Origin: Methanobacterium sp. UBA44
Lineage (GTDB): Archaea > Methanobacteriota > Methanobacteria > Methanobacteriales > Methanobacteriaceae
Assembly: GCA_002494885.1 (NCBI GenBank)
Contig: DACV01000003.1
Location: forward strand, 77,433 to 109,432
Direction: 5' to 3'
Length of the DNA stretch: 32,000 nt
Below, piece by piece: positions 4,578-9,788 of this stretch; the stretch's first letter is position 1; each line of letters starts with the position of its first letter. The notes under the pieces were generated by a model, which was given only the letters and a program-made list of their open reading frames with translations, was not told where the DNA came from and did no database searches. The translations under genes were made by a program, and so were the position numbers.

Positions 4578-5276
4578 GTGAAAAGCATGGCAGAAGGCAC
4601 CTGCGAAGTAGAAGGATACGATATGATTTCAAGGGAACTTAAAGAGAGATTAGGTTTAGATAAGTCTCCAGTTGCAATAAAATTTGTTTTAAGAGAAGAA
4701 GATATTCCAGAAGGAATCAAGAAGATAGATGAAAATATAAGACATTGCGAAATGGTTCAAAAAGCCGCACAGGGAGAAACATTCTATGCTACAGCCGAAG
4801 AACAGATGTGTAAAGGTGGATCATCCGCAATTGGCCTTATAGAAACTCCAGAGAAGATAAAAACAGGTGAATTTTATCAGAATCTGGGAAGATTCTCCAG
4901 TCTTGGTTCTGCAAAGCGTACAATGGAATCAATACCTAAAATTGACCCTATGATGAAAGCAATAATCTATGCACCTTTAGAAGAGGTCAAGTTTGATCCT
5001 GATGTGATTGTAGTTATTGGCAATCCTGCTCAGGCGCTAAAACTTGCCCAGGCAATGATTTATACCCGTGGTGGCAGAGTAGAAGCAAGTTTTTCAGGAA
5101 TTCAGTCAATATGTGCTGATGCTGTGGCCGGCCCCTTCATCAACAACACCGCAAATATTACCCTCGGATGCAGCGGTTCAAGGCAGTATGCAGGTATAAA
5201 AGAAGATGAAGTTATTGTAGGAATGAACGGCGAAAATATAGGATGTGTCGTAACTGCTTTAATATCTATGAAATAA
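4578..5276 (+). CDS. DUF169 family protein
   Basis: 232 aa. The LGLDKSPVAIKF N-terminus, the HCEMVQKA...CKGG segment and the C-terminal GCSGSRQY resemble COG2043/DUF169. ATG at 4587 is an alternative to GTG at 4578. Confidence 0.65.
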   Translation: MKSMAEGTCEVEGYDMISRELKERLGLDKSPVAIKFVLREEDIPEGIKKIDENIRHCEMVQKAAQGETFYATAEEQMCKGGSSAIGLIETPEKIKTGEFYQNLGRFSSLGSAKRTMESIPKIDPMMKAIIYAPLEEVKFDPDVIVVIGNPAQALKLAQAMIYTRGGRVEASFSGIQSICADAVAGPFINNTANITLGCSGSRQYAGIKEDEVIVGMNGENIGCVVTALISMK

Positions 5277-5569: not shown

Positions 5570-6400
5570 TTAATTTCTCAATCCCAATTCAATTACCATC
5601 TGTTCCGTCTTATTTTTATCAGGAATAAGATAATATATTCCATTAATGCGCTGCCCTTTACCTGTAACTAAAGCAGTTTGAGCATTATCTAGATCAAAAC
5701 CTGTAAGAACTTGTTCTATTATTGCAAATTCGTAGGGAGGAATGCTAGTGTGAGTATTTTCTCTCAACTGGTTCATAACAGAAGGTAATTTAACAATATT
5801 ACCTGGTTTTAAAGCCTCTTTGTAAATTGCTGCAAGAATTTTTTGATGTCTTTCAACCCTTCCAATGTCTCCTGCACCATCTTGTCTAAAACGTGCGTAA
5901 AGCAAAGTTTGTTCTCCATTAAGTTTATTATAACCTGCTTTTCCATTCAATTCAGGTCTAGCCGCTGCAACGTGCGGTTCAACATCAATATATACTCCAC
6001 CTAATGTATCCACTATACTCTTGAATTCATCAAAGTTTACTACAACATAATAATCTATAGATACATTCAAAAAATTCTCTACAGTCTGAACTGTCAAATT
6101 AATTCCACCTAACCCATATGCAGCGTTAATCTTATCCATACCATGTCCTTGTATATTTATTTTAGAATCCCTTGGAATAGAAAGAAGAGAAACCTTTCTT
6201 GTATTTTTATCAATAGAAAGAATAGTTATAGAGTCTGTATTTCCTGAATAAATTGAATTTTGAGCATCTCTACCTAATAGCAATATATTTATCCTTGAAC
6301 CAGTTTCATCATTAGTAACGTTAATCAGCAAGCCACCTAAAGCCAGAATTAAAATAGATATAAAAGTTACACTTATGATGACTTTTTGCCATTTTTTCAT
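5570..6400 (-). CDS. LytR-CpsA-Psr (LCP) family protein, N-terminally membrane-anchored
   Basis: N-terminal TM helix (VIISVTFISILILALGGLLI), then NILLLGRD...SDSITILSID...SLLSIPRDS...INAAYGLGG...RFRQDGAGDIGRVERHQ. These are conserved Arg/Asp motifs of the LCP domain. It lies 1 nt downstream of the preceding gene. Confidence 0.8.
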   Translation of the reverse strand: MKKWQKVIISVTFISILILALGGLLINVTNDETGSRINILLLGRDAQNSIYSGNTDSITILSIDKNTRKVSLLSIPRDSKINIQGHGMDKINAAYGLGGINLTVQTVENFLNVSIDYYVVVNFDEFKSIVDTLGGVYIDVEPHVAAARPELNGKAGYNKLNGEQTLLYARFRQDGAGDIGRVERHQKILAAIYKEALKPGNIVKLPSVMNQLRENTHTSIPPYEFAIIEQVLTGFDLDNAQTALVTGKGQRINGIYYLIPDKNKTEQMVIELGLRN

Positions 6401-6401
6401 T

Positions 6402-7067
6402 TTATTTCCCTAAATCATTTTTTAAAACTTTCAAATAATCATCATATCTATTAATGTTTATAAGTTCCAGATCACTGCGAGCTGGAACTCCATAAAAAAT
6501 AACGCCATCATTCACCATTTTTCTTAAAATAGGATTCAAATTATCATTATGTGAAGCCAAATATTTCTTTAAAAGAGTTTTATGACATACAAAAGGCATT
6601 CCAAGACCTTCTGCAGAGCCCAGATATCCTATTTTTCCCCGTGCAAGGATTGAAATTGTATTTTGAGGTTTTTCGCCTTTAAATACTCCTTTAATAAGAT
6701 TCTTTAAGGTTTCAGCTGATACTGTAGGTTGATCTGCTGCAACACAGAGACAATAATCAAATTTAATTCTTTTCACTCCATTTAGTAGAGATTCAGATAA
6801 TTCAACATTATTTTCAGGATTTTTAGTTACTTTAACTCTTTCATCATCAAATTCATCGATCACTGCAGTAATCTCATCGCTGAAATGTCCTAAAACAATA
6901 ATACAGTCTTCCACGCCGGCATTTAGGGTGTTTTTAATGGTTTGAAGTATAACCGGCATTCCATGTAAATCAAGAAGTAATTTATGCTTTATTTCCATTC
7001 CACGGCCCTTAAAATCTTCTCTCATTCGTCTATTTTTGCCCGCGGCCGTTATTATTGCAGAAACCAT
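6402..7067 (-). CDS. MobA-like nucleotidyltransferase (NTP_transf_3 type)
   Basis: N-terminal IITAAGKNRRM matches the G-x-G-x-R-M NTP-binding loop. LLLDLHGMPVI and the later VAADQPTVSAETLKNL match MobA/MocA-like GT-A fold nucleotidyltransferases. No TM segment. Confidence 0.7.
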   Translation of the reverse strand: MVSAIITAAGKNRRMREDFKGRGMEIKHKLLLDLHGMPVILQTIKNTLNAGVEDCIIVLGHFSDEITAVIDEFDDERVKVTKNPENNVELSESLLNGVKRIKFDYCLCVAADQPTVSAETLKNLIKGVFKGEKPQNTISILARGKIGYLGSAEGLGMPFVCHKTLLKKYLASHNDNLNPILRKMVNDGVIFYGVPARSDLELININRYDDYLKVLKNDLGK

Positions 7068-7105
7068 CTGATCACTCTAATTTTAAAATAAAGAAAAAGA
7101 TTTTC

Positions 7106-8311
7106 TTATTGAGGTATGTACTCTATGACTTTAGCATGTATACTCATGCTCGGTCCGGATCCCTCAGTCCACATAATTATTTTTACGGGATAATCATTGT
7201 TATTTGTAACTTTAACGTCCACTGCAGGATTAAATCCAAACATTACTGCATATTCACCCCAATTAAATCCTGTTGGCAGTCCAAATCCTGCCTGAGATAT
7301 CGCTCCCCTCATTGCTCTTGCTGCAGGGCAAACACCATGAGAAGCCCACCCCCCAGGAGCATGTGGGTCTATAGATCTTCCAAATCCTACAGTTTCCTTA
7401 CCTGATGAAGTTGAATGTGGTGGAATTACAGTTCCATTCCATGCTTCAACAAATGCTCGTGAATTTTGCTCTCTAACTGCATCGTTATATTCAGGGAAAG
7501 ATCCAAGTGAATCTCCATTACTTCCACTGACTTTTTCAGTAACGGGGCCCATATACACAAGTATCGGAGATCCTGAAGGATAATTTTTCATATAATCTAT
7601 TATGCTACTTCCAAATAAAGTTTCTATATCTTCTGGTGCAACTATATTCCTTCCATCATTGAAATTAGCAATAGCATAACCCAGAGTTATACGTTTACCC
7701 ACTTCAGCATTGTCGTACCATTTTTTAACATTCATTACGCTTATATAATCATGAGGAATTGTATCATTACTTATCTGACCATATGGCACTATATTTAAGG
7801 TTTTATTCCCTTCTACAATTTCCAAGCCCTCTTTTGTTTTAATTCCAAACTTATAAGGTATTTTTTCCCCATAAACAAAAGTTTCTGGCGGAGTTACAGC
7901 CAATCTATCACTTTTAACTTCTAAAATTCCCGGTCCCTTAAAACCCTGCGCAACTCCACTTTTTGAAATACTGCCGGACGTAATTCTCCCAATTGGAGTT
8001 TTAACCGTTCCAGTAACTATTGCATCGAAGAAGTCAATAAATCTCATATCTTCAATATAATCCCTAAGATATCCCGGATCGTAAAGTATGGGTACCTTTC
8101 TAATTTCTTTTTCATCTACAACCTTAGTTCCTGCCAGCACTGTATCTCCTATACTCATCGAAGTTATTTCAGTTGGTCCCTGAGGTGGAACATAATTGTC
8201 CATTGCCGTTCCCAAGGGATACATGACCAGCGCCAGTAAAATAAGTATTAATATACTAATCTTTGAATTTTTTAATAATTTCTGCAGAATATTTAACTCC
8301 CCCTTCCCCAA
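7106..8311 (-). CDS. Membrane-anchored extracytoplasmic protein with a VanW-like C-terminal domain
   Basis: It has an N-terminal signal-anchor (ISILILILLALVMYPLG). The C-terminal WASHGVCPAARAMRGAISQAGF...AVDVKVTNNNDYPVKIIMW resembles the VanW core (GGGVCQ...YNAALLAG...D.kf.N....P..I). Coding status is confident, but the family call rests on motifs only. The start is TTG at 8311 and is uncertain. Confidence 0.5.
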   Translation of the reverse strand: MGKGELNILQKLLKNSKISILILILLALVMYPLGTAMDNYVPPQGPTEITSMSIGDTVLAGTKVVDEKEIRKVPILYDPGYLRDYIEDMRFIDFFDAIVTGTVKTPIGRITSGSISKSGVAQGFKGPGILEVKSDRLAVTPPETFVYGEKIPYKFGIKTKEGLEIVEGNKTLNIVPYGQISNDTIPHDYISVMNVKKWYDNAEVGKRITLGYAIANFNDGRNIVAPEDIETLFGSSIIDYMKNYPSGSPILVYMGPVTEKVSGSNGDSLGSFPEYNDAVREQNSRAFVEAWNGTVIPPHSTSSGKETVGFGRSIDPHAPGGWASHGVCPAARAMRGAISQAGFGLPTGFNWGEYAVMFGFNPAVDVKVTNNNDYPVKIIMWTEGSGPSMSIHAKVIEYIPQ

Positions 8312-9788
8312 TAACTAATATTATGTCATTTTCATCAGCTGCTGAAATGGCTTTTTCTAAACTTTCTTCCACCTGATCCCTGCTTGCCCCAAGTGTTCCT
8401 ATTTTAGAGCTTTTTTTACTTGACTCTGTCAAAGTTACCTCAGAATCAATTTCAATCTCCATCAATGCATTTCTGCTTGCATTGGATGCTACTACTATAG
8501 TATCAACATCATTTAATATTTTTGCTATTTCGATATCCCCTTCAATTCCGCTTTCAGAGGATATAGTATTAACCACTATCAGTTTTGAGCTTGCAGGCTT
8601 TTCAAGAAGTAACGCCTGAATTATAGCTTTAACACCAGCAGGATTATGGGCAAAATCAACTATTATTCTTTTTCCGATGCTAAACTCTTCAAATCTACCT
8701 TTAACACCTTCAAAGCTTTCAATACCCTTTGTAATATCATCAAAATCTATATTTAATGCCATAGCGCCGCATGCAGCTGCAAGGGCATTGTAAATGTTAT
8801 GAATTCCCTTATTTTTTAATTTAATTCTGGCCTTATTTGACCCCATGATTAACGTGAATTGATCATCTTCAATATCAGAAGCTTTTACATGTACATCTGG
8901 ACGTCTAAATCCACATTTGCACCCATATACGCCAAGATGACCCAGATAATGTTTTAGATATTTAAGATTTTTCTTGCATAATGGACAATTCCTTTTTTCT
9001 GGATAGGCGTTAACAACGATATTTAAATCATCTATTCCAAAAAATAGACTATTATCCGGATTTTTTCCAATTTCAAGGCATGCAATTACAGGATCATCAG
9101 CATTTAAAATCAATAAATCAGCAACATCAATCATTTCACCTTTACACTGGATATAATCTAAAAAATTCCCCGAATTATCTAAATGATCCTTAGATATATT
9201 GGTTATGATTCCTATATTGACTCCTGAATTTACTGCAGATTTTTTAATCTCATTTGGGTTTCCAAATGTCCCTATTTCTAAAACAGCCACATCACCATCA
9301 AGTCTTGCTTGAAGAGATGGTATCAATTCCGTGTTCCCCTGTATATTAAGTCCATGTTCTGGAACTTTATATCCTGCGCCTTTTAAAATATGCTTGAGCA
9401 TCCAGGTTGTTGTTGTCTTTCCATTTGTTCCAGTTATTCCAATAACCGGTTTATCAATTTCGCATATCTCCAGAACTTCATCTACACTTATTATATCTGC
9501 CTCTGTAGATTTTTCTATTTTATCAATTAATTTAGAATTATTAAGTAAACTTGGAGCAAGAACAATGATATCTGCATCTTTTAAAATGTCTTCATCATGT
9601 TCTCCGAGATTAAGATAAATTCCCTCTTTCTTTAGGATTTCTATTTGAGGGCTATCGGTTGAAAGATCTGAAACCACTACATCTGCACCGTAATCCTTTA
9701 AAACCCTTGCCATTAAGCTGCCTACAGTTCCACAGCCTCCTATGACAACAATTTTAGGATTTTTCTTCTTAATAAAATTAGATTTCAT
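8256..9788 (-). CDS. Mur-ligase family protein, MurD-like with a Cys4 insertion (pseudomurein peptide ligase candidate)
   Basis: Rossmann-like N-domain KIVVIGGCGTVGSLMARVLKDYGADVVVSD, P-loop GITGTNGKTTT, central motif ITNISKDHLD, C-domain GVKGRFEEF...VDFAHNPAGV. The insertion is CPLC-x18-CKC (Cys268, 271, 290, 292). Confidence 0.85.
   Translation of the reverse strand: MKSNFIKKKNPKIVVIGGCGTVGSLMARVLKDYGADVVVSDLSTDSPQIEILKKEGIYLNLGEHDEDILKDADIIVLAPSLLNNSKLIDKIEKSTEADIISVDEVLEICEIDKPVIGITGTNGKTTTTWMLKHILKGAGYKVPEHGLNIQGNTELIPSLQARLDGDVAVLEIGTFGNPNEIKKSAVNSGVNIGIITNISKDHLDNSGNFLDYIQCKGEMIDVADLLILNADDPVIACLEIGKNPDNSLFFGIDDLNIVVNAYPEKRNCPLCKKNLKYLKHYLGHLGVYGCKCGFRRPDVHVKASDIEDDQFTLIMGSNKARIKLKNKGIHNIYNALAAACGAMALNIDFDDITKGIESFEGVKGRFEEFSIGKRIIVDFAHNPAGVKAIIQALLLEKPASSKLIVVNTISSESGIEGDIEIAKILNDVDTIVVASNASRNALMEIEIDSEVTLTESSKKSSKIGTLGASRDQVEESLEKAISAADENDIILVIGEGGVKYSAEIIKKFKD

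Follow-up and report, generated by a model that had tools for sequence, protein, structure and literature searches.

The closest described relatives of the gene analysed here are Mfer334 of Methanothermus fervidus, Mth528 of Methanothermobacter thermautotrophicus and PMurB of Methanobrevibacter ruminantium. Mfer334 was assigned to the nucleotidyl-transfer step, and synthesis of N-α-UDP-glutamate was proposed, by Subedi et al. 2021 (PMC10117817). The crystal structure of the M. thermautotrophicus orthologue (6PLJ) was released in 2020, and the PmurB gene was later listed among the genes specific to the pseudomurein clusters (Lupo et al. 2025). M. ruminantium PMurB has since been expressed and its activity reported (Cha et al. 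2026; PMC12996149). In that work, PMurB is reported to have released a phospho-glutamate species from a UMP-Glu analogue, which was used because UDP-Glu could not be synthesised, and changes in UDP and UTP were recorded.

The assay was run in the "reverse" direction only, with a 12-h incubation at 20 μM enzyme in phosphate buffer with ATP, and without kinetics or active-site mutants. Moreover, the paper words the PMurB reaction in three incompatible ways. The m/z of 227.0194 given for phospho-Glu equals, by our arithmetic, the neutral monoisotopic mass of C5H10NO7P, yet negative-ion mode is stated. The assay evidence for PMurB is thus thin, and no demonstration of the forward reaction (UTP + N-phospho-Glu → UDP-Glu + PPi) was found anywhere in the literature. 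The same study proposed PMurA as a glutamate kinase; ATP was degraded and no Glu-P was formed.

A chemically related case is Cj1416 of Campylobacter jejuni (COG1213), which PMC12275187, citing Taylor and Raushel 2019, describes as a CTP:phosphoglutamine cytidylyltransferase that transfers CMP onto phosphoglutamine. Cj1416 uses CTP, whereas the PmurB proposal invokes UTP, and its phosphate sits on the glutamine amide nitrogen; the pathway is that of the capsule O-methyl phosphoramidate, and the likeness to PmurB is a chemical one.

We analysed a stretch of 32,000 nucleotides from Methanobacterium sp. UBA44 (contig DACV01000003.1, hereafter the window). A first-pass annotation of the window had stated that the enzyme making the nucleotide-glutamate conjugate has not been identified, which is out of date in view of Subedi et al. 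2021, the NCBIfam name PmurB and Cha et al. 2026. The gene, its structure, its context and its proposed UDP-Glu role are already known from the literature and the NCBI models, and the window therefore adds only another member of the family.

PmurB of the window: gene, fold and conserved residues

The product of 6402-7067 belongs to the PmurB (Mfer334) family and is typical of it. It matched NF053639 ("Mfer334_fam, pseudomurein biosynthesis protein PmurB") with 329.9 bits against a cut-off of 260 (E = 6.8e-99), and the match was full-length, covering profile positions 1-209 of 209. In Pfam, the best match was the MobA-like family NTP_transf_3 (E = 7e-19). The N-terminus of the protein reads MVSAIITAAGKNRRM, and the plus-strand frame over the same interval contains many stops. 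The genome of the window carries a single PmurB copy as judged by the NF053639 model, and the closest named relative of the gene is that of Methanobacterium oryzae (85% identity). The 221-aa ORF of the first-pass annotation, its two motifs and its spacings to the neighbours all agree with the coordinates found here, and only the strand had been left out. The spacer from the end of PmurA (7106) to the PmurB ATG is 38 nt long and contains AGAGTGATC, and a single nucleotide separates the PmurB stop from the LCP gene (start 6400).

Table 1. Features of the PmurB locus, with positions in the window.
Feature	Position	Strand	Basis
LCP (LytR_cpsA_psr) gene	5570..6400	-	Pfam 5.8e-43
PmurB (Mfer334 family) nucleotidyltransferase, 221 aa, ATG start	6402..7067	-	ORF and NCBIfam NF053639
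AADQP, residues 110-114 of PmurB	6726..6740	-	D112 aligns to the Asp of the GlmU G-D-T-P motif
Lys29 of PmurB, invariant	6981..6983	-	pairs in the alignment with the conserved Lys of the K-x-K-V-L segment that follows the NTP loop in the GlmU pyrophosphorylase domain
NTP-binding loop AAGKNRRM, residues 8-15 of PmurB	7023..7046	-	aligns to the GlmU loop AAGKGTRM
Putative Shine-Dalgarno-like AGAGTGATC, 2 nt 5' of the PmurB ATG	7070..7078	-	sequence reading; ribosome-binding role inferred
PmurA (Mfer335 family), N-terminal membrane anchor and divergent VanW-like outer domain	7106..8311	-	NF053640 534 bits
pMurC pseudomurein peptide ligase	8256..9788	-	NF053645 596 bits vs cut-off 560
Fused pMurD2 and pMurD1 ligase, 930 aa	9808..12600	-	NF053647 661 bits (residues 1-400); NF053646 423 bits (residues 414-924)

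The protein shares its length, its invariant motifs and its place after PmurA with Mth528, Mfer334 and M. ruminantium PMurB, at about 45-50% sequence identity. The lineage of the window differs from these systems in having an LCP gene downstream and in the fusion of pMurD2 and pMurD1 upstream.

An AlphaFold2 model, computed with 33 family sequences as input, reached a pLDDT of 93.3 and a pTM of 0.91, and its compact globular shape is consistent with the earlier description of the protein as soluble. The best match of the model in the PDB by Foldseek was 6PLJ (Mth528; TM 0.93/0.95, rmsd 1.5 Å, 43% identity), followed in the structure ranking by the pyrophosphorylase domain of GlmU (TM about 0.74), IspD, TarI, KdsB and the MocA-related Rv0371c. 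Moreover, a profile search of PDB sequences returned 6PLJ at E = 5.6e-77 and GlmU at 7.6e-11, and LicC (1jyk), of the COG1213 group, matched the PmurB profile weakly (E = 5.4e-4, residues 1-82).

The fold and the catalytic residues of PmurB are GlmU/IspD-like. The N-terminal domain of GlmU has the same fold, and the AAGK-x-x-RM loop, the lysine that follows it and the aspartate of the D-x-P motif all align between the two proteins. Across 33 PmurB sequences, A8, A9, G10, R14, M15, K29, D112, Q113 and P114 are invariant. We take R14 and K29 to correspond to the catalytic Arg18 and Lys25 of E. coli GlmU, and D112 presumably corresponds to its metal-binding Asp105. Both enzymes would use UTP and a phosphorylated acceptor and release PPi.

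In contrast to this shared core, identity to GlmU is only 18-20%, and the best GlmU model gave 33.9 bits against a cut-off of 718 (TIGR01173, 31.3 against 366.85). PmurB ends at residue 221 and is devoid of the C-terminal left-handed beta-helix acetyltransferase domain, and about 8 extra residues stand between its NTP loop and K29. Furthermore, the acceptor lobe of PmurB has invariant residues of its own, namely R143, G147, G154, G156-M157-P158, N176 and N178-P179 in the same 33 sequences, and E201, N204, N206 and Y211 are further invariants specific to the family.

Distribution and gene neighbourhood

PmurB is restricted to Methanobacteria among the genomes searched and is strictly linked to the ligase cluster. 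The NF053639 cut-off was exceeded in 281 of 295 genomes and in 30 of 30 genera; the 295 genomes make up the GTDB phylum of the window, and all are Methanobacteria. About half of the 14 genomes below the cut-off have a partial or divergent match (E 1e-29 to 1e-63), and the rest, draft assemblies of roughly 80-93% completeness, show weak matches only.

The first-pass annotation had pointed to orthologues in non-pseudomurein archaea as evidence that would count against its proposal. No genome exceeded the PmurB cut-off among the 14 controls, which include M. jannaschii, Haloferax, Sulfolobus and Methanosarcina, or among 38 genomes of another archaeal phylum, in which the best matches (about 40 bits) were confined to the NTP-binding half of proteins the size of GlmU. 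When 1.84 billion representative proteins were searched with the profile, only 22 reached E ≤ 1e-30, and many of these were fragments; beneath them, scores fell to about 85 bits and covered only the N-terminal half of MobA/MocA-like proteins of roughly 200 aa. PmurB has been claimed for Methanopyrus/Methanopyrales (Subedi et al. 2021; PMC10117817), and no clearly Methanopyrus-like full-length PmurB stood out among the top 44 representatives inspected.

One divergent PmurB, among the 14 exceptions, lies in a complete genome of 1.24 Mb (G001; L040 / L121, G001:C1:320010-320588). It scored 207.5 bits, below the curated cut-off of 260, and NCBI's NF053639 model may therefore miss the deepest members of the family.

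In the window, the genes run in the order pMurD2D1-pMurC-PmurA-PmurB, and the neighbours of PmurB are all wall genes. In each of the 85 related loci, as far as the flank reaches, the gene immediately before PmurB is PmurA, itself preceded by a pMur ligase gene (pMurD2 or pMurC). The co-conservation with the ligase genes that the first-pass annotation had suggested checking is thus present.

The gene upstream of PmurB bears the NCBIfam name PmurA / Mfer335, and the earlier label "VanW-like" finds weak support: apart from self matches, its closest shape neighbours in the ESM Atlas all belong to VanW families (TM 0.33-0.41), but the Pfam VanW match (E = 0.025) is sub-threshold. Foldseek against the PDB gave no match for PmurA at E ≤ 0.001, and a wide VIA-align comparison gave a best Z of 5.5, for residues 256-401, to unrelated small alpha/beta proteins. 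A sequence reading of the membrane anchor places its positively charged side in the cytoplasm. H325-G326-x-C328 and D219 are invariant in PmurA, and VanW domains have been described as L,D-transpeptidases with a Cys-His-Asp triad (PMC11348318). PmurA was considered as a kinase partner of PmurB and rejected, as it shows no kinase or NTPase fold and has an outward-facing, VanW-like look. PmurA is the proposed supplier of N-phospho-Glu, and the lack of such a fold in it counts against the reaction proposed for PmurB.

The gene downstream of PmurB is a bacterial-type LCP gene, as first annotated. A PF03816 search found LCP in 7 of 41 relatives, counting the genome of the window itself; the remaining six are among the 22 other genomes of its genus (G093, G101, G103, G107, G111 and G113; loci L042, L050 and L053). 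It was absent from the Methanothermobacter-like, Methanothermus-like and other sampled genera among these 41 relatives, and it follows PmurB in 3 of 85 related loci. In every carrier it is single-copy, on the same strand and right beside PmurB. LCP, found only in part of the window's genus, thus looks like a lineage-specific insertion at the operon's end rather than a component of the conserved PmurB module.

Proposed reaction of PmurB and competing explanations

PmurB is probably the uridylyltransferase of pseudomurein cluster 1 that makes N-α-UDP-glutamate from UTP and N-α-phospho-L-glutamate. We infer the identity of both substrates from the literature; the fold, the family, the residues and the linkage come from the present analysis. 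In the best structural relatives, a phosphate or carboxylate oxygen attacks the α-phosphate of an NTP and pyrophosphate is released, and the reaction UTP + N-α-phospho-L-Glu → N-α-UDP-Glu + PPi is best supported because these relatives share this chemistry. Cj1416 is the only characterised precedent known to us in which an NDP-amino acid conjugate is formed by NMP transfer to an N-phosphorylated amino acid. The suggestion of the first-pass annotation that the enzyme makes a UDP-activated glutamate for the adjacent Mur-type ligases is accordingly supported, and it coincides with the current published reading of the family.

In the proposed mechanism, UTP would be held by the G10/R14/K29 loop, with Mg2+ on D112 and with R14 and K29 binding the phosphates, while the acceptor, which is small and acidic, would be bound by the second lobe with its family-specific residues, such as the invariant R143. 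The phosphate oxygen of N-α-phospho-L-glutamate would then attack the α-phosphate of UTP, and pyrophosphate would leave to give N-α-UDP-glutamate. This product would serve as the primer on which the pMurC, pMurE and pMurD ligases build the stem peptide. Pseudomurein peptide synthesis, which is confined to methanogens, has the formation of UDP-glutamate as its first and committed step, and this step is therefore a possible selective target against rumen and gut methanogens.

Several other explanations were weighed against this one. PmurB might activate a sugar-1-phosphate or polyol-phosphate, either for the pseudomurein glycan precursor or for a secondary wall polymer attached by LCP. The fold, which is that of GlmU, IspD, TarI and KdsB, would suit such a role, as would the position of the PmurB stop 1 nt before the LCP gene in the window. 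However, PmurB is near-universal in the class and LCP is lineage-specific, being found in 7 of 41 relatives, all of the window's genus, and after PmurB in few of the related loci, so that LCP cannot explain PmurB. Peptide ligases and PmurA, not glycan enzymes, make up the conserved neighbourhood, and the GlmU, IspD, KdsB and MurU models gave 21-34 bits against cut-offs of 155-718 (MurU, 26.5 against 250; IspD, 25 against 181). In addition, GlmU-like ORFs of about 420-440 aa occur separately in the genome. We consider this activity unlikely. A function tied to LCP was ruled out as the conserved role of PmurB, LCP being confined to part of one genus, and the suggestion of the first-pass annotation that the enzyme might supply a sugar or polyol to LCP is disfavoured on the same grounds.

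It is equally improbable that PmurB acts in the UDP-Glu pathway by a different chemistry, whether direct uridylylation of the glutamate amine, use of γ-glutamyl phosphate or phosphorolysis of UDP/UMP-Glu. The sole assay, in which the UMP-Glu analogue was broken down to a phospho-Glu species with changes in UDP and UTP, could be read in this way, and phosphorolysis of a UDP/UMP-Glu species is suggested by the wording of the 2026 paper. Moreover, PmurA degraded ATP without forming Glu-P and does not resemble a kinase, and no N-kinase is known. In contrast, the characterised enzymes among the best structural matches all use a phosphate-ester or carboxylate oxygen as nucleophile on the α-phosphate of an NTP, the Cj1416 precedent takes a pre-formed N-phospho amino acid, and PmurB retains the catalytic Arg, Lys and Asp.

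By far the least probable explanation is that PmurB is a conventional MobA/MocA or cobamide CobY nucleotidyltransferase that merely lies beside wall genes. PmurB does share Pfam NTP_transf_3, as its best match, with MobA and MocA, along with similar size and A-A-G-x-x-x-R-M and D-Q-P-like motifs; its D-Q-P motif is MocA-like, and MocA is its second-best NCBIfam match. These matches nevertheless stay below the equivalog cut-offs and within the N-terminal half (MocA TIGR03310, 61.9 bits against 186.45, residues 3-132 only; MobA NF001457, 23 bits against 164), and the invariant features of the C-terminal half (R143, GLGMP, N-x-NP and E-L-x-N-I-N) are absent from the MobA/MocA matches. The genome has its own full-length MobA-like ORF (L005, 129.6 bits to NF001457) and a CobY-like ORF. 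Furthermore, the genomic context differs, with no molybdoenzyme or cofactor genes as neighbours, and both context and distribution follow pseudomurein. A conventional MobA, MocA or CobY was therefore rejected. With the MobA, MocA and GlmU scores all below their cut-offs, the proposal of the first-pass annotation stands against a conventional MobA/MocA or sugar-1-phosphate enzyme.

A more far-reaching version of the uridylyltransferase assignment is doubtful. Here PmurB would act on a phosphoramidate acceptor, as the second such enzyme after Cj1416, with a substrate supply unlike the published scheme, given the VanW-like look of PmurA and its lack of a kinase fold: N-phospho-Glu would come from another enzyme (for example, the cluster 2 ATP-grasp protein), or PmurB would use a different acceptor or act directly on the amine. 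If true, the 2026 paper would leave the opening steps of pseudomurein peptide synthesis unsolved.

DUF2254 proteins and other flanking genes

The region 3' of PmurB is variable across the related loci. In 14 of 85 of them, an unfused gene for a DUF2254-like membrane protein follows PmurB on its strand, either directly or after an intervening LCP gene (L052:10732-11664, L056:10732-11742, L050:11889-12887, L053:6325-7335 and 10 more loci); the window is devoid of it. DUF2254 also occurs in a rare PmurB paralogue of about 580 aa, in which a full-length PmurB-like domain is fused to a DUF2254 membrane domain (P0013, P0015, P0016 and P0023; L130:1464-3209, L131:4253-5986; L135, G092:C36:29050-30762). 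The fusions together with the unfused downstream genes link DUF2254 to PmurB.

The fusions come from low-GC contigs and genomes of the window's family (Methanobacteriaceae, by the names of the related loci), and they were the only unusual relatives met in the search for orthologues outside pseudomurein archaea. A full-length fusion is present in 1 of 91 family genomes, beside the normal PmurB of that genome, and a second copy, interrupted by stops, is found in another genome. Their NTP loop is degenerate, with sequences such as AVESESPI and AEDTNREM in place of AAGKxxRM, and 2 of 4 lack D112. The fusion protein may be a pseudo-enzyme or a sensor.

At the other end of the operon, the pMurD2-pMurD1 fusion is common to the window and most of its closest relatives (L041-L050, L052 and L054-L056), and in most other Methanobacteriaceae loci pMurD2 alone adjoins PmurA. 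Beyond the 3' end of the PmurB operon, the window has a convergent DUF169 (COG2043) gene (4578-5276, plus strand), and its presence downstream of PmurB in most related loci indicates that synteny is kept.
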